From positions 1 to 64,000 of the forward strand of contig JBGPFC010000001.1 of NCBI GenBank assembly GCA_041483195.1: a stretch of 64,000 nt of DNA, given 5' to 3'. This stretch comes from Candidatus Eiseniibacteriota bacterium (GTDB lineage Bacteria > Eisenbacteria > RBG-16-71-46). This document shows, one piece after another, positions 34,324-51,445 of this stretch (its first letter is position 1; each line of letters starts with the position of its first letter). The translations under genes and the position numbers were made by a program. Below the pieces are notes generated by a model. The model made no database searches. It had not been told where the DNA came from and saw only the letters and a program-made list of their open reading frames with translations.

Positions 34324-34431
34324 TCGAGGGTTCGTGGCCGGCCGGGATGGCGGGTCTCAGTAGTTTTCGGCGGGCGGGCCCGCCAACCTGAGGGCGTTGT
34401 CCGGGCCGCGGCCGGCGCCGGCCACGGGGGT

Positions 34432-34488
34432 TCAGCCCGCCGCCCTCCCCGCCACCGTCCCGCTGATCCCCGCCCATTGGAAATTGAA
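34432..34488 (-). repeat. Displaced copy of the HI0933 gene 3' end (att-like scar 1)
   Basis: Encodes FNFQWAGISGTVAGRAAG*, versus FNFQWSWSSGTVAGRAAGR* at 50135-50194. Confidence 0.9.
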
Positions 34489-34493
34489 CGCCA

Positions 34494-37400
34494 TCAATCC
34501 CTGGCTGGTTCGTGAGGCGTGGGAGTGACCTGCCGGCGTTTCCGATGTGTCAGCGCGTACAACGTCGGCAGCACCAGGAGCGTGAGCAGAGTCGAAGAGA
34601 TGATGCCGCCTATCACCACGGTCGCGAGCGGCCGCTGAACCTCTGCGCCGGTCCCGGTGGCGAGCGCCATGGGCACGAAGCCGAACGCGGCAACCAGGGC
34701 GGTCATGAGAATGGGCCTCAGCCGTCGCGTGCAGCCATCCAGGATCGCGAGATCGACGTCCAGACCGTCCATGACCCGCTGGCGGACGAAGGAGAGCAGC
34801 ACGAGACCATTGAGGACGGCAACGCCCGAGAGCGCGATGAAACCGATTCCCGCCGTGATCGAGAACGGCATGTGGCGCGTCGCGAGCGCGAGGACGCCTC
34901 CGGTCAGCGCCAGAGGCACGCCGCTGAAGACCACGAGCGCATCGCGTAATGAGCCGAAGGCGAGGACGAGGGAAACCAGCACCAGCACGAGCGCCATCGG
35001 CACGACGATCGCGAGCCGGTTGCGGGCCGTCACCAGATTCTCGAACTGCCCGCCCCATCCCAGCCAGTAGCCGGCCGGAATCGAAACTCTCTCGTCGACG
35101 CCCCGCCGAACGTCGGCCACGAATGAGGCGAGATCCCGACCCCGGACGTTCGCTTGCACCACGACGCGTCGCTTGCCGTTCTCGCGACTGACCTGATTCG
35201 GCCCTTCCTCGAGCCGGATGTGCGCCACGGTGCTCAAGGGCACGAACTCGATGCGCGATGCACCCGGCGCGGCTGAACCGTCATGGCCATGCCCCGCGAT
35301 TGGGATCGGCAGCAGTTCGAGCGCCGCCACATCACGCCTCGATGGCTCGGGCAGGCGGACCACGATGGGAAACCGCCGATCTCCCGCGAACAACTCCCCG
35401 GCCTGCGTGCCACCGAGTGCCGTCCTCACCACGTTCTGGACGTCGGCGAGGTCGAGCCCGAAGCGGGCCACCGCACGGCGGTCGATGTCGATCGCGAGTG
35501 AAGGCAGCCCCGTCACCTGCTCGACCTTGACGTCGGTGGCGCCCGGCACGGCTCGCACGATGCGCGCGATACGATTCGCGGTGGTGAGCATCGTGTCGAG
35601 ATCGTCCCCGAACACCTTGATCGCAAGATCGCTTCGCACCCCGGCGATGAGCTCGTTGAAGCGCATCTGGATGGGCTGGGTGAACTCGTATGCGTTTCCC
35701 GGGAGCACCGAAAGCCGCCGCTCCATCTCCTCCACCACTTCGGCCTTCGGCCGCCTGGGGTCCGGCCATTGCCGACGGGGCTTCATGATCACGTAAGTGT
35801 CGCCGGTGCTGATCGGCATCGGGTCGTTCGCGACTTCGGCGGTGCCCAGGCGCGCGAAGACTTCCCGCACCTCGGGCATGGTGGCGATCACCGCTTCGAC
35901 CCGGTGTTGCATGATCACGGCCTGATCGACGCTGATGCCGGGCATGCGCACCGGTTGAATCAGGATGTCCTGCTCATCGAGCGTCGGCACGAACTCGCCG
36001 CCGAGACGCGTCGCGAGCACCGTGCACGCCACCAGCAGCACGCCGGTGCCGGTCAGCACGACCGCTCGGTGCGCCAGCGACCACCGCAGCACCGGCACGT
36101 ACGCGTGGCGGACGCGGCGCACGACCGGGCTCTCCGTTTCGGCGAGGCGCCCGCGCAGCAGCAGCGCGGTCATGGCGGGCACGAACGTGAAGGCGAGCAG
36201 CAGCGCCCCGGTGAGCGCCAGGAGCACGACCTCGGCGAGCGGGCGGAACATCTTCCCCTCGATGCCGGCGAGCGTCAGGATCGGCAGATAGACGATCAGG
36301 ATGATCCCGGTCCCGAACAGCGTCGGGCGCGCGACTTCCCGCGCGCTGGAGTAGCTCAGGACGAGCCGCTCGGGGAGGGTGAGCACGCGCCCGACTTCCT
36401 GCTGGCGCTGGCTCAGCCGACGCAGGATGTTCTCGACCATCACCACCGCGCCATCGACGATGATGCCGAAATCGATCGCTCCGAGACTGAGCAGGTTGGC
36501 GCTGACGCGACCCTGCACCATTCCGGTCACCGCGAAGAGCATCGAGAGCGGAATGACCAACGCCACGATCAGGGCGCCGACCCAGTTCCCGAGCAGCGCG
36601 AACAGCACCGCGATCACGAGGATGGCGCCCTCGAGCAGATTCTTGCGCACCGTGTCGAGCGTGGCGTCGACGAGCCGCGTGCGATCGTAGACGGGCCTCG
36701 CCACGACCCCGGGCGGCAACGAGCGACCGACCTCCTTCAGGCGTTCTCCGACCCGCTTCGCGACCGCGCGGCTGTTCTCGCCGAACAGCATGATGGCCGT
36801 GCCGATGACCGTCTCCGCCCCGCGGCTGGTCGCCGCGCCGGTGCGCAGCTCCTGTCCAAGCCCGACCGTGGCGACATCACCGACATGGATCGGCACACCG
36901 CTGCGCGTGGCGACTACGATCCGCTCGATGTCGTCGGGAGACGACAATCGCCCGTCGGTATGGACGAGGTACTGCTCGCCCTTGTGCGGCAGGAAGCCTG
37001 CCCCGACCGCCTGGTTGTTGTGTTCCAGCGCGAGCAGCACGTCGTCCAGCGTGAGGCCGTACGCCCGCAGCTGAGCGGGATCGGGTTGCACGTCGTACTG
37101 CTTCCGGAACCCGCCGATGGTGTTGACCTCGGTCACGCCGGGAACGGTCCGGATCTGCGGCTTGATGATCCAGTCCTGGATCTCGCGAAGGTCGGTGGCG
37201 GTGTAAATCGTGCCGTCCGCCTTGCGCGCATCCGGCCGCGCTTCGACCTCCCAGTGGAAGATCTCGCCCAGCCCGGTCGCGATCGGGCCCATCATGGGTT
37301 CGGCGATGCCGCGCGGAAGGCTTTCCCGCGCCTCTTGCATGCGCTCGTTGACGAGTTGCCGGGCGAAGTAGATGTCGGTGCCGTCGCGAAACACCACCGT

Positions 37401-37715
37401 GACCTGCGAGAGTCCGTAGCGCGACAGCGATCGGGTCTCCGCCAGGCCGGGCAGGCCCGACATCGCGGTCTCGATCGGAAACGTGACCCGCCGCTCGATC
37501 TCCAGAGGCGGCAGGCCCTCGACGATCGTGTTGACCTGGACCTGCACGTTGGTGATGTCCGGCACGGCGTCGATGGGAAGACGGCGGAGATTGAAAATCC
37601 CAAGACCCGCAACAGCCGCGGTCACGGCCACCACCGCCCAGCGATGTGCGACCGAGAAGTGGAGTGTGCGTTCGAGCAGCGTGCGGGCCTCCGGCAGGTC
37701 CGAGTCAGTCTTCAT
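34494..37715 (-). CDS. CusA/CzcA heavy-metal efflux RND transporter
   Basis: LPIDAVPDITNVQVQV, SANLLSLGAIDFGIIVDGAVVMVEN, RLRPILMTA, GAEVQRPLATVVIGG. Confidence 0.95.
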   Translation of the reverse strand: MKTDSDLPEARTLLERTLHFSVAHRWAVVAVTAAVAGLGIFNLRRLPIDAVPDITNVQVQVNTIVEGLPPLEIERRVTFPIETAMSGLPGLAETRSLSRYGLSQVTVVFRDGTDIYFARQLVNERMQEARESLPRGIAEPMMGPIATGLGEIFHWEVEARPDARKADGTIYTATDLREIQDWIIKPQIRTVPGVTEVNTIGGFRKQYDVQPDPAQLRAYGLTLDDVLLALEHNNQAVGAGFLPHKGEQYLVHTDGRLSSPDDIERIVVATRSGVPIHVGDVATVGLGQELRTGAATSRGAETVIGTAIMLFGENSRAVAKRVGERLKEVGRSLPPGVVARPVYDRTRLVDATLDTVRKNLLEGAILVIAVLFALLGNWVGALIVALVIPLSMLFAVTGMVQGRVSANLLSLGAIDFGIIVDGAVVMVENILRRLSQRQQEVGRVLTLPERLVLSYSSAREVARPTLFGTGIILIVYLPILTLAGIEGKMFRPLAEVVLLALTGALLLAFTFVPAMTALLLRGRLAETESPVVRRVRHAYVPVLRWSLAHRAVVLTGTGVLLVACTVLATRLGGEFVPTLDEQDILIQPVRMPGISVDQAVIMQHRVEAVIATMPEVREVFARLGTAEVANDPMPISTGDTYVIMKPRRQWPDPRRPKAEVVEEMERRLSVLPGNAYEFTQPIQMRFNELIAGVRSDLAIKVFGDDLDTMLTTANRIARIVRAVPGATDVKVEQVTGLPSLAIDIDRRAVARFGLDLADVQNVVRTALGGTQAGELFAGDRRFPIVVRLPEPSRRDVAALELLPIPIAGHGHDGSAAPGASRIEFVPLSTVAHIRLEEGPNQVSRENGKRRVVVQANVRGRDLASFVADVRRGVDERVSIPAGYWLGWGGQFENLVTARNRLAIVVPMALVLVLVSLVLAFGSLRDALVVFSGVPLALTGGVLALATRHMPFSITAGIGFIALSGVAVLNGLVLLSFVRQRVMDGLDVDLAILDGCTRRLRPILMTALVAAFGFVPMALATGTGAEVQRPLATVVIGGIISSTLLTLLVLPTLYALTHRKRRQVTPTPHEPARD

Positions 37716-38661
37716 CGCCGCCCGCTTCCTTCTCGAGTTCCGCCTTCAGCCAGAACGCGTTCCGGGTGACGATGCGCGCGCCGCGTTCGAGTCCCGTGAC
37801 GATCTCGGTCATCGTTCCGTCGCTTCGGCCCAGCGTCACGGGTTGTACCTCGAACCCGGACGAGTCGGCGCGGAATACGGCGGCGCCCGTGCCCACGCGG
37901 ACGATCGCGTCCTCCGGCACCGCCACCGGCACCGTGACGCGCTCGAGCACCACGACCGCGGTCACGAGGCGTCCGGGCTGCCAGCGGCCATCGGGGTTCG
38001 GAAGCACGACGCGCGCGTAGGTGGTGCGCGTATCCACGTCGAGCACCGGCCCGACGTAGCTGATCGTGCCGGACGCCGAGGTCGCCGGCCCCCCCGCCGC
38101 CCGCACGTGGACGCGTTGCCCACTTCGAATCCTGCCGAGTTGCTCCACGTAGATCGGAACGTCGAGCCATACGCTGGACAGATCCGAGACCGTGTACAGG
38201 ACCGACCCCAGGTCCACCGCCGCTCCAGGGCTAGCCGGGCGAGCGACGATCGTCCCGCCCATCGGGGCGGACACGACGTAGCCGCTGAGGCTCTCATTGC
38301 TCAGGATCTCGGCCAACGGCTGCCCGCGGGAGACGCGGCTCCCCAGCTCCGCGAGCAACGTCGTCACGCGACCCGGGTAGGTCGGCCGCACATCGACGCT
38401 GCGCTCGGCGTTCAACTTGATCTCGCCCGGCAGCTCGAGGGTGACGTCGGTCGGCTGGGCCCCGGACCTGCCGACGGCGATCCCGGCGCCGCGGACCGCC
38501 TCGGGCGACAGAGTCACGAGGGCCCCGCCATGCGATCCGGTGCGCGGCGCTGCCTCGTGCTCGGCGACCTCGGGCGGCTGCTTCGCGCAGCCGGAAACGG
38601 CCATTGCGTGCGCCAGCAGGACGGCCGTCAGCAGAGTTGCTGTTCGCCATGGGCGGTTCAT
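37705..38661 (-). CDS. RND periplasmic adaptor (CzcB/CusB-like)
   Basis: Lipobox VSGC, APMGGTI, DLSSVW, GTISYVGPVLDVDTRT. Confidence 0.9.
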   Translation of the reverse strand: MNRPWRTATLLTAVLLAHAMAVSGCAKQPPEVAEHEAAPRTGSHGGALVTLSPEAVRGAGIAVGRSGAQPTDVTLELPGEIKLNAERSVDVRPTYPGRVTTLLAELGSRVSRGQPLAEILSNESLSGYVVSAPMGGTIVARPASPGAAVDLGSVLYTVSDLSSVWLDVPIYVEQLGRIRSGQRVHVRAAGGPATSASGTISYVGPVLDVDTRTTYARVVLPNPDGRWQPGRLVTAVVVLERVTVPVAVPEDAIVRVGTGAAVFRADSSGFEVQPVTLGRSDGTMTEIVTGLERGARIVTRNAFWLKAELEKEAGGDED

Positions 38662-39947
38662 CGCGCCTCCTTCGGGGTGAGAAGCCCGGTGCCCGCCAGG
38701 AACTCGAGCCGCAAGTGCGCGCGCCAGAGCTCGGCCTGTGCGTCGATGAGCGCGAGCTCGGTGTCGAGCAGGTTGGATTGCTCGGCAACGAGATCGAGGT
38801 AGCTCGACCGACCCATTCGATAGCCGCGGAGCAACTCGTCGACGATCTGCTCACGGGCCGGACGCACGCGAAGACGGAGGGTGTCGTAGACGGCAGCGGC
38901 GGCCTTGATACGCTCCGCGGCGACCACGAACGAAATCTGAAGTCGCTGCTCCGTCGCTCGTCGTTCGGTTGTGGCCGCCTCGAGCTCGCGATGCGCCGCG
39001 GTGACGCCGCCACCCCCTCGGTTCCAAAGGGGCAGCGGCACTTCAGCCCCGACCAGGAATCCGCTGCCCTGCACTTCTTCGAGGCGTCTCACACCGCCAG
39101 ACAACGTGAGGTCTGGACTCCGGGCCGCGGCCGCCGCCTGCACGCGGGCGGAAGCGATGGCTTCGGTTGCCGCGGCGCGAGTCAGCTCGGGATGCGCCGA
39201 GAGCCGGGGCCACCATCCCGCGGTGTCGCTCGGCAGCACCTGCTCGGGGGCGACCAGGGAGTCGAACGTGGCCGTCACCGCGCCCCAGCTCAGGGCGAGC
39301 TCCCGGCGAGCAACAGTCAGATCCGACTCGGTGCGCTGACGCTCCACCGCTTGCGTCGTCGCCCGACTCTGCGCGCGCAGAATTTCCAGACGTGGTGACG
39401 CGCCGGCCTGAAATCGTTGCGTCGCCGCACGGATGGCTTGCTCGGTGAGCGCCTCGCCTTCCCGCAACCGTCCGAGTCGGGCCTGAAGCGACCACGCCGC
39501 AATGAATCGGTCCGCGGCCTGAGCCAGCGCGTCGCGACCGATCGTGCCCGCCTCGGCACTCGCGAGCCTGGACTCCGCCTCGGCAAGCCCCAGGCGCGCG
39601 CTTCGGTCGCCTCCGATCTCGAAGACCTGGCTGATGGCCATTGTGGCCTCTCGATGGCTCGCACCGAGTTGCCCGCCGAAGTTTTCCTCGGTCGCGTTCA
39701 GAGTCGGGTTCGGACGACGGCCGGCATCCCCGACCCGTGCGCGTGCGGCCTGAGCCCGCAGACCGGTCACCTGAAGCGTCGGTCCGTATCGGCTCGTGAG
39801 CGTGAGCGCACGTTCGAGGGTCAGGGGACCGGAAATGGCGGCGATGGTGTCCGGCGGCATGGGTGCCGCGATCGCCGTGGCCCGCGATGACACGAGAGCC
39901 ACGAGCATGATCGCGCAGCGGCAGCCGGCTCTCACGATTGAGAGCAC
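38658..39947 (-). CDS. TolC/CzcC outer-membrane efflux protein
   Basis: PNPTL, RFQAG...LEILRA, VPLPLWNR, GYRMGRSSYLDL. Confidence 0.9.
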   Translation of the reverse strand: MLSIVRAGCRCAIMLVALVSSRATAIAAPMPPDTIAAISGPLTLERALTLTSRYGPTLQVTGLRAQAARARVGDAGRRPNPTLNATEENFGGQLGASHREATMAISQVFEIGGDRSARLGLAEAESRLASAEAGTIGRDALAQAADRFIAAWSLQARLGRLREGEALTEQAIRAATQRFQAGASPRLEILRAQSRATTQAVERQRTESDLTVARRELALSWGAVTATFDSLVAPEQVLPSDTAGWWPRLSAHPELTRAAATEAIASARVQAAAAARSPDLTLSGGVRRLEEVQGSGFLVGAEVPLPLWNRGGGGVTAAHRELEAATTERRATEQRLQISFVVAAERIKAAAAVYDTLRLRVRPAREQIVDELLRGYRMGRSSYLDLVAEQSNLLDTELALIDAQAELWRAHLRLEFLAGTGLLTPKEAR

Positions 39948-40029
39948 GGAATGATCTCCTTCGAGCTAGAGGGTCCGACCGTGGGTGCACGAATTCGTGC
40001 GCCGTCTCAGATTCGGGCAGCTCGAGAGA

Positions 40030-40410
40030 TCAACAGCGGAGGATGGGAAAGTGCTTTCCGGGAGGTTCGCCGGCCCAGAAGCGACGGGCCCCGACAAGAG
40101 GCGCGGCGACGGCAGCTACATATGGTGTGACGAGCGGCAGAGCCGTCGTCAGCGCGCCGCGAGCCGCCGGCGCGATGCTCCTCAAGGCGGTGAACACCTC
40201 GTCCCGACACGGCCCACACTCCGCCGTTCCGGTCGCGCCGATCGTCGCCTCAGAATCACAGGTGGGCAACACCATGCATGCGCAGAATCCCGGCTCCAGC
40301 TTCTCGACCCCGTCTGCGGAGATGCAGACGGAACCGCTCGCCAGCGGAGGCATGACGATGAGCAGTTGGAGGAGCGCGAGCATTCGGGTGGGCCACTTCG
40401 GTGCGCGCAT
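40030..40410 (-). CDS. Small Cys-rich hypothetical exported protein preceding the efflux genes
   Basis: VCISADG.EKLEPGFCAC...ECGPCRD; ends ILRC. Confidence 0.5.
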   Translation of the reverse strand: MRAPKWPTRMLALLQLLIVMPPLASGSVCISADGVEKLEPGFCACMVLPTCDSEATIGATGTAECGPCRDEVFTALRSIAPAARGALTTALPLVTPYVAAVAAPLVGARRFWAGEPPGKHFPILRC

Positions 40411-40486
40411 GGGTTCTCGACATTCGTGGAAATGCCGGCGCCGGTCAAGCTCGGGGCCGTCGCGGCAATCGTCGCTCGTGGGTCGA

Positions 40487-41047
40487 TCAGTCTCCCTCGA
40501 CGACAGGCAGCCCCTGGTCGATCCAGTCGTGCTGGAGGTTCTTGGCGATGTTGAGAACCCGGACGTCCGTGAATCCTATCTTGCGCGCGGCCCGAAACGC
40601 CGGGCGTACGTTGGGACAGTCGGCCCAGGGGCAGCAGCCGCAATACAACACCACCGCCTGCTCTCGCGGAATCTTCCGCAGTTCCTGCTGCAAGGCCGCC
40701 AATCCCTCCGGCTTCGAGGCGGGCCCAATGAACCGTGACCCCGGAATGTGTCCGGCTCGGAACAACACCTTGAACCCGACCTGCAGCACCACCGGTCGCT
40801 TTGCTGTCGTGTCGGCGAGGGCTCGCGCGAGGGCTTCGGGTTGGATCAGCTGCCCGGGCTGCGGCGGATCGGTGAGGCTCGACGCCAGGCGCAGCGAGTC
40901 CTCACCGCCCCGGGCTCGCGGGCCGGGTTCGCCGAAGACGGGGCGGTTGATCAGGGCGGGCAGGGCTATGGCGACAGCGGCCAGAGCCCCGAGCAAGACC
41001 GCGTGCAGGCGTGCGCGGAAGGATCGCGCGGACTCGAGGGCCGTCAC
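40487..41047 (-). CDS. Exported rhodanese-like protein
   Basis: GTGA overlap with upstream stop; GHIPGS, VVLYCGCCPWADCPNV, W..QGLPV. Confidence 0.8.
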   Translation of the reverse strand: MTALESARSFRARLHAVLLGALAAVAIALPALINRPVFGEPGPRARGGEDSLRLASSLTDPPQPGQLIQPEALARALADTTAKRPVVLQVGFKVLFRAGHIPGSRFIGPASKPEGLAALQQELRKIPREQAVVLYCGCCPWADCPNVRPAFRAARKIGFTDVRVLNIAKNLQHDWIDQGLPVVEGD

Positions 41048-42201
41048 ATCCAGCCTCGGAGCCAGGATTGCTCCAGCAGCACCTTGCCGAGGTGCCATCG
41101 GCGGGATGGCTTGTCCAAGGACACGGCAGGCAACGGCTCGGCGTAGAAATTGCCCTTGCCGAAGCCGGCCTTGCCGTCTCCCGTTTCGACGAAACACTCG
41201 CCGAAGCCGGTGAAGCGAGCCTCTTCTCCTCGGCCGGTGATGGCTCGCGCGATGTTTTTCGCAACCACCTGGGCCGCGAAGTGAGCGAAGACACCCGCCT
41301 TGGGCAGTGGCTTGCCCAGCTTGAGCGGGACCGAGTTGACGTCCCCGATGGCGTAGACGTTCGGAACGCGCGTCACGAACGTGTTGCGATCCACCTCGAT
41401 CCAGCTCCCTTCCGCGCACAGTCCCGAGTCGCTCACCACGGAAGGCACGTGGTGCGGTGGAACGAATCCGAGCATGCCGTAGGACGCGGCCGCGCCGTTG
41501 GAGAAGTGGATGCTGCGCGCGGCCGGGTCGACACGAGTCACCTGATGCTCGGGTCGATAGTTGATTCCCTTGCCCTCGACCATCTGACGAACGGCCGCAG
41601 AGACGTGGGCCCCCGCCACGCCCATCGGGCCGGGCTCCGCGGTGAACATGTCGACCTGGACATGCTCGCGCACACGCCGCGCACGGCAGGCGGCCTCGAC
41701 CAGCATCGCGGCCTCATACGGCGCGGCCGGGCAGCGATAGGCCGGCGCCGCGGTGAGGATCACGACACGGCCACTGCGCAGCGAGGCAAGCTGGTCGCGG
41801 AAGGCACTCGCTCCTGCGAGGGAGTACAGATCGTGGCCGCCGTCGACCAGACCGGGGATCGCGCTCGCGGCCGTGGCGGCGCCAAGCGCGATCACGATGT
41901 GGTCGGCACTCGAGGTTCGGCCCGCCACCACGACCTCGCGTCGGGCGGCATCGATCCGTTCGATCTCGCCCGTCGTCACCGTCACGCCGCGGTGGACCAG
42001 CCGCCGCAGCGGCCGTGAGATCTGCTCCGGACGGCGCGCCCCGACCAACAGCCAGAGCAGCGACGGCGCGAAGAGGAACGTCTCCTCACGGTTGACGAGG
42101 ACAAGCTCGTGGGTCGCGGGGAGGCGCTTGCGAAGGTCGTTGGCGACCACGATCCCGCCGACTCCACCACCCAGCACGAGAACGCGCTGCGTTCCTCCCA
42201 C
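41044..42201 (-). CDS. Sulfide:quinone oxidoreductase / FCSD-like FAD oxidoreductase
   Basis: VLGGGVGG, YRCPAAPYE, YAIGDV, LPKAGVFA, GECFVETG; GGAGGAG RBS. Confidence 0.85.
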   Translation of the reverse strand: MGGTQRVLVLGGGVGGIVVANDLRKRLPATHELVLVNREETFLFAPSLLWLLVGARRPEQISRPLRRLVHRGVTVTTGEIERIDAARREVVVAGRTSSADHIVIALGAATAASAIPGLVDGGHDLYSLAGASAFRDQLASLRSGRVVILTAAPAYRCPAAPYEAAMLVEAACRARRVREHVQVDMFTAEPGPMGVAGAHVSAAVRQMVEGKGINYRPEHQVTRVDPAARSIHFSNGAAASYGMLGFVPPHHVPSVVSDSGLCAEGSWIEVDRNTFVTRVPNVYAIGDVNSVPLKLGKPLPKAGVFAHFAAQVVAKNIARAITGRGEEARFTGFGECFVETGDGKAGFGKGNFYAEPLPAVSLDKPSRRWHLGKVLLEQSWLRGWM

Positions 42202-42215
42202 GTCTCCTCCCTCGA

Positions 42216-43253: not shown

Positions 43254-43257
43254 GGCT

Positions 43258-44043
43258 CTACTCCGGCTTGAGCGCGGTCATCATGACGGCCTTGACCCCA
43301 TACGCTTCAGCTGAGTTCTGCGTCGACTCCTTGCGGAACCGAAACCGCGGGACGACCGCGGATCGGACACGCGTGAAACCGGACTCCTCGAGCAGCCGGA
43401 ACAGCTCTCCCTCCGGGAGAGCGCCGCCGATTCAGCTGGCCCAGAGTTTGGGATCGTTGACGATCGATTGGGAAAGCTGCTTGGCGCTCACGATGTCGGT
43501 GATCGAAATGCGACCGCCCGGCCGGAGCACGCGAAAGATCTCCTCGACGACCCGGCGCTTACGGAACGAGAGGTTGATCACTCCATTGGAGATGACGACA
43601 TCCACCGAGGCCGCGGGCACCGGGATGTCCTCCATGCGCCCGACCTTGCATTCCATCCGGGTCCCGTTCTCTGCCGCGTGCGCCTGGACCTTGAGGCACA
43701 TCGCGGGGTTGAGATCGACACCGATGACCCTGCCGCTTGGGCCAACGCTCCAGGAGGCGATGATCGCGTCGAGGCCAGCCCCGCTCCCGAGATCGAGCAC
43801 CGTCTCTCCCGGCTGCAGGTTGCTTCGCTCGTGCGGATTGCCGACGCCGGCGAACGAGTCGACGGCGCTCGCGGGCGCGCGATCGAGCCACTCTGGCGAG
43901 TAGCCGAACAATTCCGCCGCCTCGCGGCCGTGGAAGAAGTGGAAGGTGCCCTTCGGGTTGTCGGCGACTTCCTGATACATGCGGACGATCTCGTCCTTGA
44001 GCACCGCCTCCAGAGAGGCCTGCGCGTCGACGGAATCAGTCAT
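43258..44043 (-). CDS. ArsM-like SAM methyltransferase, predicted selenoprotein (UGA at 43432-43434), 261 aa
   Basis: VLDLGSGAGLD, RVLRPGG; WAS-UGA-IGGAL matches ArsM W.xC.xGAL; frame continues to TAG at 43258. Confidence 0.85.
43404..43431 (-). promoter_or_regulatory. Bacterial SECIS-like hairpin
   Basis: GCTCTCCC-GGA-GGGAGAGC perfect 8-bp stem starting 9 nt after the UGA, G-initiated loop. Confidence 0.75.
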
Positions 44044-44138
44044 GTCGTGACTCCCCCCGTTCGTGTCCACGAGATCGGCGTGAGATTCGCGCCGCGGCAT
44101 GGCGATCGAGCCCAGGCCGTTCGATCCCTGCTCCTCAA

Positions 44139-44162
44139 GTATTCAAACGTGTACTTGAATAC
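44139..44162. promoter_or_regulatory. Inverted-repeat operator, putative ArsR-rhodanese site
   Basis: GTATTCAA-N8-TTGAATAC upstream of the methyltransferase operon. Confidence 0.65.
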
Positions 44163-44194
44163 CATGCGGACGACGGGTGAGTCAAGCGAGCCGG

Positions 44195-45403
44195 CTAGAA
44201 CATCGGGGTCGGCACGCGCCCCCACCCGGTGCCCGGACCCAGAGGATGGATGTCCAGCAGCACGAGGTTGTGGATGTCCACGTCCGCGAAGAACTGCGGC
44301 TCGCGGGTCGTGTTGATGCCGAAGAGTTGCGCGGGGGTATCGGCCGGCCCGGCGGAATCGATGCGCAGGAAGATCAGCCGGCGGACGACGTCCCCCGGGG
44401 GAGCATTCGGGGCCGACATGCCCGCCATGTCGTGGTGCATCATCGTGTGGCCGCCCTGCAGGTGCCGGAACGGGTGAAAGATCCAATCGGAGATCATCGC
44501 CAGCGTCTGGTGGTGCTGGTAGAGCCGCCACTGCGGCCCGATGTCTGCGATCATCCCCTGCATCACGTACTGCGGGGGCATGAGGTAGACGAGGATGGGC
44601 CCGGTCGTTTGCGAGAGGCGCGACTTCACTTCCGGCAGCTCGAGAACGTCGGCCATCCGGTGCTCGAGCATCATCGCGTCGCCCGGCAGGATGGTCATGG
44701 CCGTGACCCTTCCCTCCGACCACAGTGGCAATCGCGCGATCGTGAATGCGCGCAGGGCGAACGCGCTCCCGACGGCGACCGCGATCAGCAGGATGAAGCC
44801 GACCAGGGGCCGCAGCGCCGGGAAACCCGGCAGCGGCACGCGATCCACGGCCTGCTCCAGCGCGCGCGGGCAGAACCGGCCCGTCCGCTCCATGTAGTCG
44901 CGATACTGGTCGCCGAACTGGTTCAGCATCCGCCGCTCCTCGTCCATCGCCAGCAGGTAGTAGAGCCCGACCATGACGGTCCAGAGGACGACGGTGAGAA
45001 ATCGCGGCCACAGGATGGCCAGCCCGATTCCGGTGAGCGCGAGCGCGACGTATTGCGGATGGCGAATCCAGCGGTAGAGGCCGCCCAGCGCGGGGCCGCG
45101 ACGCAGGAACTGGTGGAAGTAGACCTGCGCCGCGCACGCGAGGAACACGACCGTTCCGCCCACGAAGAGCACCGAGCCCGCGACCCGGACGGCCTTGAGC
45201 ACGATCCCCGGGGGAAGCACCATGTGCGGCATGAAGAACGACGCGAGCCAGCGCGTTGCCGGCGAGTGGGCGAGGAAGAGCAGGAACGGGTTGAAGGCCG
45301 CGTAGAAGAACGCAGCGAACGGGCTGATCATGATCAGCACCTCGAGCGCGATGATGAAGTACAGGACGATGACGCCGCCGAACAGCGGGCGCGACTTGTT
45401 CAA
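44195..45403 (-). CDS. ICMT/PEMT-family membrane methyltransferase with C-terminal soluble extension
   Basis: AAGGAGGAG RBS before TTG; GGLYRWIRHPQY, EERRM..QFG.QY.DY..RT.RF.P. Confidence 0.8.
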   Translation of the reverse strand: MNKSRPLFGGVIVLYFIIALEVLIMISPFAAFFYAAFNPFLLFLAHSPATRWLASFFMPHMVLPPGIVLKAVRVAGSVLFVGGTVVFLACAAQVYFHQFLRRGPALGGLYRWIRHPQYVALALTGIGLAILWPRFLTVVLWTVMVGLYYLLAMDEERRMLNQFGDQYRDYMERTGRFCPRALEQAVDRVPLPGFPALRPLVGFILLIAVAVGSAFALRAFTIARLPLWSEGRVTAMTILPGDAMMLEHRMADVLELPEVKSRLSQTTGPILVYLMPPQYVMQGMIADIGPQWRLYQHHQTLAMISDWIFHPFRHLQGGHTMMHHDMAGMSAPNAPPGDVVRRLIFLRIDSAGPADTPAQLFGINTTREPQFFADVDIHNLVLLDIHPLGPGTGWGRVPTPMF

Positions 45404-45432
45404 GGATCTCCTCCTTCGGAACTGATCCGCTC

Positions 45433-45927
45433 CTACTTCGACTTTCTTCGCCGGCCGTTCTGGAGCCTCGCGAGCGCGTGCACGTGCCTGCGAATCGGGG
45501 CCTGCTGCCCCCAGCTTTCGAGCAACCGGGCAGGCCTGCCTCTCGGCGTGCGCGCGAGCCTCGCATCCCACTCCCCGAGCATCGTGCGCATCTGATCGCG
45601 CAGCAGCGCGAGGTCCCGGAGCTGGGCTTCGATGGATTCGAGCTTGGCGGCGGCCAGGGCTCGCACCTCGCGGCAGGGCGTTCCACCACGGTCCCTGATG
45701 CGCATGAGCCGCGCGAGCTCGTCGAGCGTGAATCCAACCGCGAGAGCGCGCTGTACGAGGTGGACGCGCCCGGGCGCCTGCGCGTCGTACTCGCGGTAGC
45801 CGTTCGGCGAGCGGCGCGACGCGAGCAGCCCCTTGCGCTCGTAGTGGCGCAGGGTGTCCTTGCTGAGCCCGGTCTTGCGGGCCAGCTCCCCCGCGCGCAA
45901 CGGACCGGGCGGTCCATCTTCGCTCAT
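45433..45927 (-). CDS. MerR family regulator (ZntR/CueR-like)
   Basis: LRAGELARKTG...TLRHYERKGLL...NGYREY, GFTLDEL, PCREV. Confidence 0.9.
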   Translation of the reverse strand: MSEDGPPGPLRAGELARKTGLSKDTLRHYERKGLLASRRSPNGYREYDAQAPGRVHLVQRALAVGFTLDELARLMRIRDRGGTPCREVRALAAAKLESIEAQLRDLALLRDQMRTMLGEWDARLARTPRGRPARLLESWGQQAPIRRHVHALARLQNGRRRKSK

Positions 45928-45934
45928 GGGCCGG

Positions 45935-45966
45935 ACTCTAGACCATGGAACTCATTCCATGGTCAA
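45935..45966 (-). promoter_or_regulatory. MerR-type long-spacer promoter with dyad operator
   Basis: TTGACC-20 bp-TAGAGT with perfect GACCATGGAA-N4-TTCCATGGTC; ATG 7 nt below the -10. Confidence 0.85.
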
Positions 45967-45997
45967 GGGCTCAGATCCGCGCTGGCGCTGAGCTGAT

Positions 45998-47407
45998 CTA
46001 CCTGGCTACGACGAGCTTCTGTATCCGCGAGACGTCCCTTGCCTGCATCCGGACGAAGTACACGCCCGACTTCAGGGGGCGACCGTCCGAATCCCTGCCA
46101 TCCCACGCGAGCACATGCTCACCGGCTGACTCGGCCCGATCCTGCAGCCGGATCACTTCGCGCCCCGCGATGTCCACCACCGCCAATCGCGCACGGCCCG
46201 CGCCGGGCAGCGCGTAGCGCAACGTCGCGCCGGCGTACGTCGGATTGGGCTCGGGCGCGCGCAACTCGAAGCCGCGCGCCGGGGCGAGCGCCTGCTCCAC
46301 CGCGGTCACAGGCGCGGGCGTCAGCACCATGGCCCGAGTGAAGGTCGTACGGAGCGCATCGCCCACGATCTGGCCCGCGTCGTTGATCTCGTCGGCATAC
46401 GTGAGGACGTACCCGGTGCCCGGGGCGATCAGGGAGTTGAGATCCTGCGGCGGGCCGCTCGCCGAGAACAGCGTCGCGCGCGATGCGTCGCCGGGGAGCG
46501 TGGAGTACCCCACGATTTCACCCGACCCATTGATTCCGAGCGCCTAGCTGCTCAGTGCACCGTCGAGCATTCCCAGATCGGTTGCCGAAAGTCCCACCCA
46601 GAGAGTCGCCCGCGACTCGCTCCCCGACTTGGAATAGCCGACGACATCGCCCTGGTTGTCGACGCCGATCGCGTCGGATTCCGAGAATCCTGCCAGTGGT
46701 GGAAGCTCGTCGATACTCGTCCCATGCAGCCTGAACCCACGAATCTGCCCCAGCATGTTGGCTCCGTAGCCGCAAATCTCGGAGCCGTCGTTGGAGATTG
46801 CGCTGGCCACGCTGAAGTAGCCCCCCAGGTTGGGCAGGAACGCGCTCGACCCTTCGCTCCATTTCATGGCGTGCCCCGGGCTGCTGACACACTGGGGGTA
46901 GCCGCAACCGCTCGTGAGATTGGTCCAGCCCACGACCACTCCCGAGTCCGAGATGCTGTAACCGTACGAGTCGCCCGCACCGGCCGGCTTGGGAAGGTCG
47001 AGGAGAGCCCCGCCGGGCGCCTGATGGGCGGCCGTGGCGAATCCGTTGGACTGCGTCAGCCCGAAACCGCACAAGGCCCCGTCGCTGTTCACGTCGGTCG
47101 CGGCACTGAGGAGCGAAACCACGAGCGCGCCCTCGTCGGTCATGCCGCCGGAGCTGGTCCAGCGGAAGACATGGCCTGCCGAACCATCGGTGGCGGCCCA
47201 GCCGACCACCAATCCGGCATTGTTGATTCCGGTCGCTTCAGACGTGCCGGTCGTGTCGGTTCGTAGCGTGCCGAGAACAGTGAGGTCGTACGACGAGGCT
47301 TCTGCCCTCGCTGCCGACAAGGCAAGCAGGCATATCATCGGGCAAAGAACTCGGGTGGATTTGTTCGGAGCGGGCTGTGAACCCGGGCTCAAGCCTCGAG
47401 CGATCAT
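45998..47407 (-). pseudogene. HAF-repeat secreted protein with FlgD-Ig/T9SS-like tail, interrupted by in-frame TAG at 46544-46546
   Basis: SEATGINNAG.VVG-type repeats; SS*ALGINGSGEIVG continues in the same frame to the tail. Confidence 0.8.
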
Positions 47408-47583
47408 TGGGGGCGGCCTCCTCGTGGCGATGGCGCGAGTGACGCGGGTGACGATCATATCAGTGGTGCCCGCGGGCATTGATGAGAAAATGTCGGCGCC
47501 CTGGCCCAATCCGCTCGAGATCGAAGCGGAACACGTGCGGCGAAGGAGGAGCCAGGCGGCGCGCAAGTCGATGCGCTTGTGAA

Positions 47584-47643
47584 TCACTGCCCCGCGGCCC
47601 GCCCCGCCTGCGTCCCGCTCGACCACGCCCACTGGAAGTTGAA
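47584..47643 (-). repeat. Displaced copy of the HI0933 gene 3' end (att-like scar 2)
   Basis: Encodes FNFQWAWSSGTQAGRAAGQ*. Confidence 0.9.
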
Positions 47644-47902
47644 TGCTGGCCAAACTCCGAGACTACGTGTCGCAATCGGGCACAAGGTGCTGCTATCGGA
47701 GACCTTGACCGCAAGGGCGTGCGACCGATCGCGACCCACGATGGTCGTTGTTGCCCGATGGTTCTCGCACAATTCTGGCACAGCCCAAAGCTGCGTCCTC
47801 GGCCATCGGGGACTGCGCCCGGCTCGTCCTGCACCTAGAAGGATCTGCCCCGGCCGACCATGTGATGCAGAGTTCACGGTCGGTCCTGCGGCTCCTCCTC
47901 CC

Positions 47903-49999
47903 TCAGGGAGCTACCATGAGAACGTCTTGAATCTTGCGCACCCGGATACCAGAATCCGATCGCCTTCCTGTCCGGACATCGACAACGGCAAGCGCACCTT
48001 GTTCGAGGATCAGCACCCGATCGCGATCGAGCCAGCCGACGAACTCGGCATGCTCCGCGCGCCACAAGGTGGACGGGATCGGATCCAGGGCATCCACTTC
48101 CGCCACGGGAAGTTCGGCGAGACTCGCCTTGACCCGCCGCAGCTCGAGGCTATCCGGAGGCTCGTCGGCCGATGCATGCAGCGTTCCGTCACCACGGATC
48201 GTGAAACCGATCGCCCGCCGGTCGGGAGCGGGGGCGAGATTGTCGGTGAAGAAGCTCACGTCGCTGTGCTCGTTGTGATAGCGGGGCCACTCGTCGAAGA
48301 ACACGACTTGGACGCCTTGGCGGACGATCCACGACTGGTTGGAGTTCTCGTTCGACCACCCACAGCATGCGAAGTCTCCGATCGAACCGATCTGGGTCTC
48401 GCCTCGATCGAAGTAGAGCTGCGCTGAGCGCTCCCCTCTTGATCGCCAGCCCGCTTGAGTTCGGACGAACAGAGTGTTGGCGCCCTCGGCTTGCGCGACG
48501 GAGCCTTCGGATCGAGTCGCGCGTGGGACCATTCGATCAAGCACGAAGAAGCTGTCCACGACTCCGTTCGATGCCACGACCCCGGCCTCTTCGCACGGTT
48601 CGGTCAATGCGGCGACAGGGGACGGATTGTCCTCGCAGCGCTCGTAGGGCAGGTCGAAAATAGCGTGACGCGGCTTTAGGTCGAAGTCCGTCTCCTCGAA
48701 GCGTGCCGCGTTGTAGGCGCTGTCGACGTCCAGTGCGCCCTGCCAGGAGATCGTCGAGGTCTCCAGCAGGAACGCGCTGCTATCGGCGGCGCCCAGGTAC
48801 CACTTGCGATCGCATGAGCCGCGCAAGAGGTATGAAGCGTTGGGAGATCGTGTGCGCTGTCTCCAGCTCGCGCCGTCCCAGATCCACACGCTGTCCCGGG
48901 TGACGGGGATGAGCAGCTGTCCGCGCCGATTCACGAGAATTCGAGCCGGATCTACGAAGGCGAAGTCAGGTATTCCCACGCCGCCGAGGCGCTCGAGGGC
49001 GGCTGAGTACGCGACAAGGTGATTCGGCGCCTCCGCCACCCAGAGGCGAGCCTCGGTCGCTCGCGAGCCAACACCGACTTCATTGAACGAGTAGCCGACG
49101 CGCTGCAGAGTCGGCGGGGTCGCGTACCATTTGTGATTTCCGATCCGGACTCCGTACCGGAATAGGTGCGGCCTGAGGCCTCCGTCTGGTTCGGCTATGG
49201 CCTGACTAACAACGGAGACGATCACCACGCGCTTGTTCGGCCCGACACGGATGGTCGAGGGCTTGGTCGAAGCGGCCTTCGGGTAGAGCGCGAGCGGTTC
49301 CGGACCTGAGCGAGGTCGACCATCGCAAGCCTCAGGGCCGATCGCAGCGACCTCTCGCTCGATCAAGGCCCATTCGCGCACGCCCTGAGGAACTGCGGGT
49401 TCGAATTTGATCGCCCCGTTCCGGATACGTGGTTCCAGAGTCGCCGGGTACTCGATGCAGTCCACTCTCGAGGTCCCCTCGACGAATTGAGACTTCGAAG
49501 GATCCCAATCCAGAACCACCCAACCACTGCTGGCGATGGAATGCGGCGAAGCGAAATGGATGTACTGCCTTCTTTCGCAGGCGGCGGTTGACGCGCATGG
49601 CACCAGTTGTGCGGTCACGATCAGCATGAGACCGTCGCGCCATGGCGCGCTATCCACATGCAGGCGGGTGCATCGCAGGCCGAGGTTCGCGTCATACCAA
49701 GCGACTCCGCCCTGCGAGTTTGGAATCGAGATTCCCCGGTATTGACGGGGTTGCGCCTCGTCCTTCGCGCCTTCGCCACATGAGTCTCTGGTCCAAACGG
49801 CGCGAACGATCACCGAGTCCCCGCGGAACACGCCTCGCCAGATCGACCCGACCGCCTCTTCGGGCTCACCGGCCCAGCGCGTAGCGGAGGCAGGTGCGAT
49901 GAACGCCGACAGCGCAAGCAGACCGATCGCGACCCTCGTCCAGCGGACGAGTGGATCGAGAGAGGCGGATGAAGCGAATCGAAGTGGATCCACCCTCAC
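47903..49999 (-). CDS. Hypothetical exported protein (698 aa), only ORF on the ~2.5-kb segment between two HI0933 3'-end copies
   Basis: Long ORF with signal-like N-terminus and less GC-biased codons; no recognised family. Confidence 0.55.
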   Translation of the reverse strand: MRVDPLRFASSASLDPLVRWTRVAIGLLALSAFIAPASATRWAGEPEEAVGSIWRGVFRGDSVIVRAVWTRDSCGEGAKDEAQPRQYRGISIPNSQGGVAWYDANLGLRCTRLHVDSAPWRDGLMLIVTAQLVPCASTAACERRQYIHFASPHSIASSGWVVLDWDPSKSQFVEGTSRVDCIEYPATLEPRIRNGAIKFEPAVPQGVREWALIEREVAAIGPEACDGRPRSGPEPLALYPKAASTKPSTIRVGPNKRVVIVSVVSQAIAEPDGGLRPHLFRYGVRIGNHKWYATPPTLQRVGYSFNEVGVGSRATEARLWVAEAPNHLVAYSAALERLGGVGIPDFAFVDPARILVNRRGQLLIPVTRDSVWIWDGASWRQRTRSPNASYLLRGSCDRKWYLGAADSSAFLLETSTISWQGALDVDSAYNAARFEETDFDLKPRHAIFDLPYERCEDNPSPVAALTEPCEEAGVVASNGVVDSFFVLDRMVPRATRSEGSVAQAEGANTLFVRTQAGWRSRGERSAQLYFDRGETQIGSIGDFACCGWSNENSNQSWIVRQGVQVVFFDEWPRYHNEHSDVSFFTDNLAPAPDRRAIGFTIRGDGTLHASADEPPDSLELRRVKASLAELPVAEVDALDPIPSTLWRAEHAEFVGWLDRDRVLILEQGALAVVDVRTGRRSDSGIRVRKIQDVLMVAP

Positions 50000-50134
50000 A
50001 GTATCGTCCGCAGGCCCGCTCCAGCTGAGTGCGGTGCTCGGCCCGCTGGTCCCGCCCTCATTTGTGGCCGCACCTTCGCAGGCCGGCGGGAACAGGTTCT
50101 CGGACCCCGGTTCCCCATGGCTCGCGATCGCGCC

Positions 50135-51445
50135 TCACCGCCCCGCCGCCCTCCCCGCGACCGTTCCGCTCGACCAGCTCCACTGGAAGTTGAACCCCCC
50201 GAGCCGTCCCTCCACGTCGAGGATCTCCCCGCACAGGAACACGCCGCTCGCCTTGCGCGACTCGAGCGTGCTCGGATTCACTTCGTCCAGCGCGACGCCG
50301 CCCGCGGTCACCTCGGCCTTCTCGTAGCCGAGCGTTCCCGTCACCTGCATGGGACGCGCGATCACGAGCCGCAGCAGCGCCGCGCGCCGCGCGCGCTCCA
50401 CCTGCGCGAGCGCCGCGGCCGGGGTCACGCCGGCCTCCGAGCACAGCTCGCCCGCGAGCCGGTCGGGCAGCGCGCGTCCGAGGTAGCGCCGCACGCTCGC
50501 GCGCGGATCGCGCGAGGCCTCGAGCCACGATGCGAGCAGCGTCGCCTCGGTCTCATCCGGCAGGAAGCTCGTGCTCACGAGCCGCTCGCCCTCGCCCTCC
50601 GCGCGATGCCAGTGCCGCGACAGATCGAGCGCGGCGGGCCCGGAGTATCCGAAGTGGGTGAACAGGAACGAGCCGCGCGTCGCCGCGAGCTTGTGTCCCC
50701 CGGCACGCAGCGTGAGCGCGACCTCGAGCGTGACGCCCTGCAACTTCTCGCACAGCGGATCGCTCGAGGTGAGCGGCGTGAGCGCCGGCACCGGCGGCAC
50801 CAGCGTGTGGCCGAGCGACTCGGCGAGCGCGTAGCCGGTGCCGTCGCTCCCGGTGCGCGGAAACGAGAGCCCGCCGGTCGCGAGCACGATCGCGTCGGCC
50901 TCGATCCATTCGTCGGGCTCGATCGCGGGCAGCGGCCAGTGGGTCGCGCCCTGCGCCGCGACCGCCGCGCCGAACGCCGCGGCATCGCGCACGTTCTGGA
51001 TGCCGATCCGCCAGCGCGGCGGCACGATGCGCGGCGCCCGCTCGATCCGCACCGCGCGCGCGCCGCACCGGATCGTCACGCCCGCGCGCTCGCACGCCGC
51101 GAGCAACGCGTCGAGCACAGTGCGTGCTTCGTCGGTCTCTGGGAAGTACTTTCCGGTGGGCTCGAGCTTGAGCGCGACGCCCAGCGACTCGAGCCACGCG
51201 CGCGACGCCTCCGCGGGAAACGCCGCGAGGATGCGCCGCACCACCGCGCGCGAGCCGCCGTGGAAGTCGCGCTCGTCGACGCTCGCGTGCGTCACGTTGC
51301 AGCGGGTGCCGCCCGACATCAGGATCTTGAGCCCGGGCCTGGGGTGCGCGTTGAGCAGCGTGACGCGCGCGCCGGCCTCCGCCGCGCGCAAAGCTGCGGT
51401 GAATCCCGCGGCGCCCGCGCCCACCACGCATACCTCGCGGTTCAA
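50135..51445 (-). CDS. HI0933/YhiN/BaiN-family flavoprotein
   Basis: VVGAGAAG, KILMSGGTRCNVT, ATGG.SFP.TGSDGTGY, AEVTAGGV, GEILDV.G.LGGFNFQW. Confidence 0.92.
   Translation of the reverse strand: MNREVCVVGAGAAGFTAALRAAEAGARVTLLNAHPRPGLKILMSGGTRCNVTHASVDERDFHGGSRAVVRRILAAFPAEASRAWLESLGVALKLEPTGKYFPETDEARTVLDALLAACERAGVTIRCGARAVRIERAPRIVPPRWRIGIQNVRDAAAFGAAVAAQGATHWPLPAIEPDEWIEADAIVLATGGLSFPRTGSDGTGYALAESLGHTLVPPVPALTPLTSSDPLCEKLQGVTLEVALTLRAGGHKLAATRGSFLFTHFGYSGPAALDLSRHWHRAEGEGERLVSTSFLPDETEATLLASWLEASRDPRASVRRYLGRALPDRLAGELCSEAGVTPAAALAQVERARRAALLRLVIARPMQVTGTLGYEKAEVTAGGVALDEVNPSTLESRKASGVFLCGEILDVEGRLGGFNFQWSWSSGTVAGRAAGR

Follow-up and report, generated by a model that had tools for sequence, protein, structure and literature searches.

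The window analysed here, a stretch of 64,000 nt from Candidatus Eiseniibacteriota bacterium (GenBank assembly GCA_041483195.1, contig JBGPFC010000001.1, positions 1 to 64,000), contains a gene for an HI0933-family flavin adenine dinucleotide (FAD) flavoprotein, the 3′ end of which is present three times. We interpret the three copies, with a probability of about 0.85, as attachment (att) scars, two islands having been stacked at the 3′ end of the gene by a dedicated clade of tyrosine integrases. In relatives, targeting of the HI0933 gene is tied to one such clade. From these relatives we infer that the window's islands arrived by integrase, the order in which they did so, and the route by which they may be mobilized in cis.

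The end of the HI0933-family gene is present in three copies

The HI0933-family gene is intact (50135–51445, minus strand; GC content at third codon positions, GC3, 0.90). Its product matches PF03486 (E = 2.1e-69, residues 4–432 of 436) and PF22780 in Pfam and TIGR00275 in NCBIfam (1e-111), and carries an aminoacetone-oxidase-type label; its role at this locus is that of an integration target. The terminus of the gene (copy 1, 50194–50135, minus strand), comprising the last 19–20 codons, follows two glycine codons, encodes FNFQWSWSSGTVAGRAAGR and the stop codon, and consists of the 15-nt core TTCAACTTCCAGTGG and the tail that now completes the gene. Copy 2 (47643–47584, minus strand) encodes FNFQWAWSSGTQAGRAAGQ and copy 3 (34488–34432, minus strand) encodes FNFQWAGISGTVAGRAAG, each followed by its own stop codon. 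All three are in direct orientation, and a repeat search places them in one direct-repeat family with spacings of 13155 and 2551 nt. Copy 1 and copy 2 delimit island B (47644–50134, 2.5 kb), while copy 2 and copy 3 delimit island A (34489–47583, 13.1 kb).

The original prediction had reported that the last 57–60 bp of the gene recur at 47584–47643 and 34432–34488, and we confirmed both the coordinates and the content of the repeats. It was likewise right that similarity ends in both displaced copies at the Phe codon of GGFNFQW: similarity to the gene starts exactly at the TTC codon (the T of TTCAAC), at the same base in both, with 0 nt of identity to the left. Copies 1 and 2 share 15 nt of unbroken identity and are identical at 41 of 50 nt overall, and copies 2 and 3 are identical at 40 of 50 nt. 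The further claim that the copies vary synonymously yet keep the peptide stands only in its first half. Specifically, copy 2 differs from the gene by S>A, V>Q and R>Q in addition to three silent changes, while copy 3, the most decayed, has W>G, S>I and two changes within the 15-nt core.

The three copies exceed chance expectation, as a window-free profile and a six-frame scan single out just these places. The scan, which covered the whole 4.17-Mb genome (93 contigs), found the peptide motif at the three copies only, together with an unrelated FQLQW on contig C30. An nhmmer core profile for which only displaced copies outside this genome were used (17 of them, none from the window) recovers copy 2 (E = 4.4e-12), copy 1 (E = 9.3e-12) and copy 3 (E = 5.6e-9), and the next match in the genome has an E-value of 4.7.

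The repeats are real and not a product of misassembly, which the original prediction had named as a possible undoing, because independent contigs span each copy. These contigs stem from sediment metagenomes, the two runs flagged as possible sources not being among them, and bridge all three copies with 0 differences: X3 record 1 (33474–34679) bridges copy 3, X3 record 5 (46435–47680) bridges copy 2, and X6 record 16 (48836–50860) bridges the junction between the gene and island B. Alternative joints listed in four metagenome runs have sides of ~20–27 nt, unrelated coordinates and no att link, and were set aside as noise from other organisms.

A clade of tyrosine integrases is dedicated to the HI0933 gene

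We searched 102 genomes of the order with the integrase of G022 as the query and fetched the best 30 loci. All 10 loci with at least ~67% identity have the HI0933 gene convergent with the integrase gene, with 90–164 nt between match ends, and none of the 20 loci with 57% identity or less adjoins HI0933; 17 of these distant loci carry a tRNA gene, tRNA-Leu in 12. One of the 10 HI0933-linked loci is from the unpublished genome G026, and excluding it leaves 9 of 29. In a collection of named species representatives, the core lies just past the integrase in 9/9 loci with at least 69% identity and in 0/31 more distant ones. The HI0933 gene is visible in eight of the nine close loci, the remaining contig ending too early, and a tRNA gene is found in 22 of the 31 distant loci. 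Seven of the nine named records (all metagenome-assembled genomes, MAGs) bear the title Candidatus Eisenbacteria, one that of an uncultured Clostridiales and one that of an uncultured bacterium. The Clostridiales record (L126) is a 2.3-kb MAG contig with the HI0933 core and an integrase 75% identical to the Eisenbacteria clade, and is probably a mis-binned contig.

In an IQ-TREE phylogeny of 25 integrase segments, the six full-length HI0933-linked sequences form one clade (support 90/93) composed of two subclades. The tree is midpoint-rooted only, leaves out L066 (unpublished) and L070, L078, L081 and L091 (<300 aa), and is unreliable as to the long branch L090 beside the clade. The subclades coincide with two of the arm classes described below, class 2 with G022, G087 and G044, and class 3 with G017, G075 and G046. 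Five aligned members of the clade have an invariant HDLRR, a later H and a C-terminal Y..Y, among which the catalytic residues of the integrase family would lie.

G022, the genome of which is assembled as a single contig, has a complete element. Its tyrosine recombinase of 487 aa (PF00589, E = 4.6e-15) is encoded convergently to HI0933, next to the 3′ end of that gene. It is preceded by an HTH_17 gene and a Prim-Pol/AAA_25 primase, and cargo of defence type occupies the 40 kb that extend to the displaced copy, including SIR2, HerA, SNF2, an Eco57I-type methylase, a DEAD/MZB helicase and RmuC. The original prediction had proposed a search for an HI0933-linked integrase family with downstream FNFQW-encoding repeats; the clade found here converges on the gene, and in G022 a displaced copy bounds the element.

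The open reading frame (ORF) of the G022 integrase (L033:2554–4017, plus strand) crosses the Y arm (defined below) and the att core, and extends 135 nt antisense into HI0933 (end at L033:3882), so that its last ~45 predicted residues would differ between the integrated and the excised form. In GC-rich DNA, such a C-terminal extension is probably of low complexity and without relevance.

The attachment site comprises a core and two putative arms

Alignment of the element side of 19 displaced copies reveals a conserved module with sharp boundaries, upstream of which conservation ceases; by sequence, it falls into three classes. In every class the module opens with two tandem 11-mers, TGTGyNAGAAC, 137–139 nt upstream of the displaced core. 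The same motif is present in the same orientation 159–160 nt downstream of the gene-proximal core in G022, G017, G041 and G071, and the Y sides of all nine integrase-bearing elements have it at that offset, just before the 3′ end of the integrase gene. By analogy with the lambda-type paradigm, this layout would correspond to P and P′ arm-type sites flanking the core; the putative arms are termed here the X arm, beside the displaced core, and the Y arm, beside the gene-proximal core.

Island B has a complete X arm (47644–47785, minus strand) that abuts copy 2, matches an arm profile built without the window sequence (E = 1.4e-18) and aligns with eight other class-1 arms. It opens with the tandem 11-mers TGTGCCAGAAT and TGTGCGAGAAC (47782–47761, minus strand), 139 nt upstream of the core. 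No Y arm was found in island B. In an integron cassette array, IntI adjoins attI and the cassettes end in attC hairpins; the array repeats here consist of a coding gene end and a linear arm of direct 11-mers, and there is no integrase at the window's array.

The two ends of integrase-bearing elements share unbroken identity over 21, 21 and 15 nt, counted from TTCAAC. Because unbroken identity is limited to these 15–21 nt, strand exchange must fall within TTCAACTTCCAGTGG(GCGTGG). Beyond the core, the integrase subclades carry distinct, synonymously recoded tails (...TGGAGCTCGGG... vs ...TGGTCATCNGGG...), and displaced copies mostly retain ...TGGTCGAGCGGG.... The tails travel with the element, the gene tail of G001 matching the tail of copy 3 in G008. 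The gene is regenerated by an element-borne end, being full length by Pfam and ending in element-type tails.

Contig C5 of the genome bears a decayed second array of the integrase family, at a tRNA-Leu(CAA) gene (L115:818–3430). The order there is the tRNA gene, ~2 kb, the tandem 11-mer motif, a displaced tRNA 3′ end ~138 nt further on, a second motif, and an integrase fragment that is 61% identical and on the opposite strand. We considered whether mimicry of the tRNA T-loop could account for a switch of target and rejected it; tRNA-Leu(CAA) and the HI0933 end align with a score of 13, which is equalled or exceeded by 458 of 500 shuffles.

Arrays at the HI0933 gene are widespread in the order

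The 15-nt core TTCAAYTTCCARTGG is present in 58 of the 102 genomes, and a reversed control occurs once in all 102. Two to four exact cores are found in 18 genomes, and displaced copies were verified in 16 of these, giving at least 16 of 102 genomes with displaced copies and up to four copies per array. The rejected genomes are G061, in which the second match is an unrelated ORF, and G081, which has two gene-type copies on separate contigs; one of the three core matches of G071 likewise represents an unrelated ORF. With the profiles, further and weaker copies emerge in G003, G004, G015, G016 and G059. Where copies share a contig, 1.4 to 91 kb separate them and their orientation is direct, save for a partial inverted copy in G011. 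This copy (G011:C25, L044:1600–1750) has a class-1 arm and lies 1.3 kb from the core of the gene; beyond its FNFQW codons the sequence is unrelated, and the opposite strand bears a second arm motif. It may stem from an inversion or from aberrant recombination.

When 41 relatives were searched with the HI0933 protein, short extra matches to its final ~20 residues appeared past the gene in G008 (three matches), in G004 and in G022; G002 has one such match, on a short contig without the HI0933 gene. The genes upstream of HI0933 (EamA, MBL-fold) are syntenic, while the downstream content is different in every relative examined, so the original prediction did not fail in the way it had itself foreseen, namely by relatives sharing the whole block.

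Islands without an integrase show recent transfer and decay in relatives

Composition marks the islands of the window as foreign. GC content is 69% in the window as in the genome; it is ~0.74 in HI0933 and its upstream neighbours, drops to ~0.64 exactly at the stop codon (50135), and is 0.63–0.70 across both intervals between copies (~64% in island B, 65–70% in island A). GC3 also breaks at the stop codon, from 0.90 in HI0933 and flanking core genes to 0.73–0.86 in island ORFs, and the content past it is variable among relatives. By Pfam, neither island, each bounded by att copies on both sides, encodes a recombinase, a relaxase or a secretion gene. Islands A and B are thus att-bounded and devoid of integration and transfer genes, as is expected of a cis-mobilizable element (CIME).

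Relatives have class-1 arms at similar islands: G008 has three such islands one after another, and G001, G004, G011, G055 and G059 have further ones. Integrase-less islands in relatives are mobile, now or recently, between genera. Specifically, G008 and G055, two genomes of different genera, share an island encoding TetR and DUF418 with 97.7% identity over 1931 nt, and the copy in G004 is 91.5% identical to it, while the HI0933 genes beside these islands are only 67–71% identical (67% between G008 and G055). Compared with G008 (L036), G055 (L102:948–1104) has ~110 extra nt, including a short tail, between the core and the shared sequence, which may be the stub of another, deleted mini-island. 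Decay by deletion is seen in G055, which retains a G022-type tail and ~90 nt of a Y region distal to the island, and in G041, which keeps a Y arm without an integrase.

It is possible, though we hold the idea tentatively and think it somewhat improbable, that the class-1 X-arm islands are a distinct kind of one-armed hitch-hiker cassette requiring only the ~140-nt arm and the 15-nt core. Island B, the three islands in a row in G008 and those in G001, G004, G055 and G059 would be examples. If this is true, an element with an HI0933-specific integrase landing alongside would load and unload cassettes, and an uncultured phylum would have an integron-like exchangeable cassette array behind a housekeeping gene.

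Proposed integration at a regenerated gene end, and its alternatives

Judging from relatives, the attP of a complete element would have, in order, an X arm, a core of 15–21 nt identical to the gene (TTCAACTTCCAGTGG...), a recoded version of the last ~15 codons with a stop codon, a Y arm, and an integrase gene reading towards the core. Strand exchange in the core would join the tail of the element to the gene, which would stay intact, and would move the old tail to the distal side of the island. The regenerated proximal site could then serve the next element, and repetition would generate an array whose oldest copy is the distal one. Applied to the window, copy 3 would be the oldest displaced tail, copy 2 would have been brought by the element of island A, and the present tail of the gene by that of island B. 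Island A would now be a fixed relic that has lost both arms. Island B would be a one-armed, cis-mobilizable hitch-hiker that moves only as a composite with an adjacent integrase-bearing element: the Y arm of the neighbour and the X arm of the island would bracket the pair and allow joint movement, and the island would remain if the neighbour excised alone. Composite travel would need the distal arm only, which would explain selection that keeps the X arm but not the Y arm. The original prediction, which had assumed two successive site-specific integrations with the gene end as attB and an integrase since lost or active in trans, is largely supported; none of the three results that it had named as refuting (a block shared by relatives, a misassembly, the lack of an HI0933-linked integrase family) was obtained.

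Several observations weigh against this reading. No integrase, excisionase or Y arm is present in or near the islands of the window, and PF00589 has no match on the window's 228-kb contig (C1). The earlier remark that no integrase is visible thus holds for this contig, for tyrosine and serine enzymes alike; a genome-wide Resolvase search for serine recombinases also gave no match, with a control that matched 12 of 14 reference genomes. The genome (96.8% complete) holds only fragments from other clades of the integrase family, on C77 (48% identity), C5 (61% over 94 residues) and C20 (with stop codons), some of them at contig ends, as on C77. Since integrase, excisionase and Y arm are absent here, we infer integrase action at this locus from relatives, in which a tyrosine integrase adjoins one att site, and we class the islands of the window as integrase-less derivatives. 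All nine class-1 arms, the window's included, border integrase-less islands, and none has so far been seen linked to an integrase. Profile searches reveal neither an X nor a Y arm in island A; with no arm, and with the stop codon of czcA at a distance of 5 nt from copy 3, the island cannot still have its original ends. The left boundary of the TetR-DUF418 island differs between genomes, lying at core +46 in G008 and core +156 in G055. The predicted empty site, HI0933 followed directly by the ExeA-SPOR gene that lies downstream of copy 3, was not found among 40 relatives, in none of which an ExeA-SPOR orthologue is on the HI0933 contig; within the genus of the window, paralogues of 35–37% identity are all that G001 and G003 have, and G002 has no match. 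G003 was rejected as an empty site for its weak copy 3.5 kb downstream, and all three apparently single-copy relatives with at least 17 kb of downstream sequence (G003, G015 and G016) have weak extra copies. Finally, an att-to-att joint is absent from four metagenome runs, in which assembled contigs, which cannot reveal rare excision, were searched.

The absence of an integrase and a Y arm from the window leaves some room for transfer without any integrase, in which cassettes would have been exchanged by RecA-dependent homologous recombination with the array of a relative, at a site first made by integrases; the HI0933 gene with its core would have provided homology on one side, and a repeat of arm and core on the other. 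The islands are indeed flanked by stretches conserved between genera, the core of ~50 nt (74–94% identity) and the X arms of ~140 nt, and the left junction of the TetR-DUF418 island is at no fixed position. However, the homology is short (15–50 nt at high identity), and the HI0933 genes, being only 67–71% identical between genera that share a 97.7% identical island, would be a poor substrate for RecA. In addition, every copy breaks at the same base, the T of TTCAAC, and a break of similarity at one base is the signature of a fixed crossover site. We consider RecA exchange improbable on these grounds. We assign still less weight to the idea that the islands remain mobile in trans, with an integrase of the HI0933 clade, encoded in an unassembled part of the genome or by a co-resident element, acting on island B. 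The fully conserved X arm of island B (E = 1.4e-18) would fit such activity, as would a draft of 93 contigs with integrase fragments at contig ends (C77), but nothing in the 96.8%-complete assembly exceeds 61% identity to the clade, the four runs contain no att-to-att joint among their contigs, and island B is single-armed.

Two further explanations are scarcely credible. The first is Tn7-like (Tn6230-type) transposition downstream of yhiN, so far the sole mechanism described for this gene as a hotspot, with terminal TGT...ACA ends. The gene yhiN serves as the att site of the Tn7-like transposon Tn6230 (PMC11406308, Table 1; PMC10121019), and the arm motif starts with TGTG. Nevertheless, Pfam detects no TnsA, TnsB, TnsC or TniQ domain in the 23 ORFs of the window or in 142 ORFs from islands of relatives. 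What is repeated is a recoded gene end of 57–60 nt, where transposition would duplicate 5 bp of the target; the TGTG motif is set back 138 nt from the tip of the element; and it is a tyrosine integrase that co-occurs with the site. Whole-genome searches for TniQ and TnsA gave no match and are uninformative, since the controls were silent in all reference genomes. Decayed remnants of an HI0933 paralogue, or chance similarity, might be suspected in a genome of 69% GC, where Gly/Ala/Arg-rich tails arise easily. Against this, the profile matches have E-values of 6e-9 or better and nothing else in 4.17 Mb reaches an E-value of 1, both displaced copies break at the same base, copy 2 adjoins a conserved arm, and the same architecture is found in at least 16 other genomes. 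Site-specific integration by the HI0933-linked clade accordingly remains our preferred explanation of the array.

Relation to known integration systems

Accretion at the 3′ end of a protein gene is known from ICESt1 and ICESt3 of Streptococcus thermophilus, for which Pavlovic 2004 and Bellanger 2011 are reportedly the primary papers. According to PMC5704250, these elements, at the 3′ end of fda, undergo accretion and cis-mobilization together with CIMEs. The islands of the window would agree with this model of accretion and cis-mobilizable elements. In both cases a tyrosine integrase acts at the 3′ end of a protein gene and the gene end is restored, decayed integrase-less elements keep att sites, and integration at the regenerated site leads to arrays; composites can move jointly in the former and may do so here. 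Here, however, the target is a HI0933/yhiN-family flavoprotein gene, the host phylum is the uncultured Candidatus Eisenbacteria, no conjugation module is seen (the G022 element has a primase and defence genes and not a type IV secretion system), and many integrase-less islands retain the distal arm only.

The system also resembles the Islander-type genomic islands that target tRNA genes (tDNA; PMC4383910). The integrase family appears to be shared, the nearest relatives of the clade adjoining tRNA genes; a displaced 3′ fragment marks the end of the island in both systems; and the tRNA-Leu(CAA) remnant on C5 has the same arm motif at the same spacing. In contrast to tDNA, the HI0933 target is protein-coding, which obliges the element to bring a recoded in-frame tail with a stop codon, and the 3′ end of tRNA-Leu has no similarity above chance to the HI0933 core. 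A switch of this clade from a tRNA gene to a protein gene is likely, and would be a clean natural case of an RNA-to-protein-gene target switch, since the clade sits among tRNA-adjacent integrases.

Integrases and islands specific for dusA (PMC4482086) and islands of the trmE/SGI1 type (PMC8409611) reportedly share with the present system the association of one integrase clade with one conserved housekeeping gene and the restoration of the interrupted end. The elements at dusA use the 5′ end of their gene, dusA and trmE/SGI1 elements occur in Proteobacteria, and the integrase clade and att sequence are different from ours. For Tn6230, Table 1 of PMC11406308 and the text excerpted from PMC10121019 give insertion between yhiN and yhiM; the same gene family thus marks an insertion just past its 3′ end, while the mechanism reported there involves a transposase and TniQ and no duplication of the gene end. 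The original prediction had known of no hotspot at HI0933/yhiN, which these excerpts on Tn6230 contradict for the gene and leave standing for integrases. No report of an integrase-type att site in HI0933/yhiN was found in the open full-text literature, a scope that stops short of subscription-only papers and survey supplements. The independent use of the same gene as a landmark by a Tn7-like transposon in enterobacteria suggests that the conserved C-terminal FAD-motif region of HI0933/yhiN is a generally attractive safe harbour.

Integration into gene ends, restoration of the end and tandem accretion by tyrosine integrases are already well established (tDNA, fda, dusA and trmE). What appears to be new is the HI0933/yhiN 3′ end as attB for a dedicated integrase clade, with the core, the two arms and the crossover window mapped by comparison. 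The core and arm architecture, the likely target switch and the many one-armed, integrase-less islands add to this; the result as a whole would not surprise a specialist. One site repeatedly gathers genes for metal, sulfide and arsenic resistance, defence systems, toxin-antitoxin pairs and secreted proteins, and the boundaries of islands in Eisenbacteria MAGs can be drawn with the core and arm profiles. To our knowledge, the phylum is known only from such genomes, and for a phylum of this kind the site is a rare handle on the organisation of horizontal gene flow.

Gene content of islands A and B

The sole ORF of island B (47903–49999, minus strand; GC3 0.73) encodes a 698-aa protein with a signal-peptide-like N-terminus, and is cargo, not a recombinase. 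The protein has no match in Pfam (also at E-values up to 5), NCBIfam, PADLOC or PDB sequences; its best score in Atlas, 0.85 (recognition 1799), is below the trustworthy level and serves as a lead only. One homologue of 66% identity was found (G054:C4:15145–17229). This homologue does not count as evidence that island B is shared with G054 as an island, as it lies 10 kb past the distal att copy of that genome and the core and arm profiles are silent there. The N-terminal (~35–304) and C-terminal (~315–696) halves of the protein occur as separate ORFs in several relatives, for example G016, G099, G059 and G006, and for this reason the protein looks like a fusion of two modules of no known function. 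When island B and its borders were scanned for promoters and terminators, 0 sites of either type were returned.

All genes of island A discussed here are on the minus strand. Next to copy 3 is an operon for heavy-metal RND efflux (34494–39947), which consists of CusA/CzcA (34494–37715), a HlyD-type adaptor (37705–38661) and an outer-membrane factor (38658–39947), with matches to PF00873 (E = 0), TIGR00914 (1490 bits against a cut-off of 701), PF16576 and PF02321. It is followed by cargo related to sulfide and arsenic stress (40487–44100; Pfam and NCBIfam), which includes a rhodanese-domain ORF, an SQR-type flavoprotein (41044–42252), a DsrE/TusD-like ORF (42216–42575), an ArsR-rhodanese regulator (42576–43253) and an ArsM-like methyltransferase (~43258–44100) that reads through a TGA codon (43432–43434). 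With this TGA read as selenocysteine, the ArsM-like frame extends by ~57 codons (...WASUIGGALPEG...ALKPE and stop). The NCBIfam matches of the ArsM-like protein include selenoprotein-subtype models (ArsM_AhpD_UU, 5.4e-51), all below the curated cut-offs, and the adjacent SQR and rhodanese genes likewise match selenoprotein-subtype models below cut-off. The remainder of the island encodes a PEMT/ICMT-like membrane methyltransferase (44195–45937), a FlgD-Ig protein sorted by a type IX secretion system (45998–46513) and a HAF-repeat protein (46544 to ~47500), the longest ORF of which overlaps copy 2 in another frame.

Downstream of copy 3, the ExeA(AAA_22)-SPOR gene (32317–34323, minus strand) contains in-frame tandem repeats at 32674–32783 and 33286–33462 (periods of 33 and 24 nt). 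Genomes of the same genus are without a close ExeA-SPOR, and the best orthologue (79%) is in another genus, which suggests that the DNA distal to copy 3 may likewise be variable.

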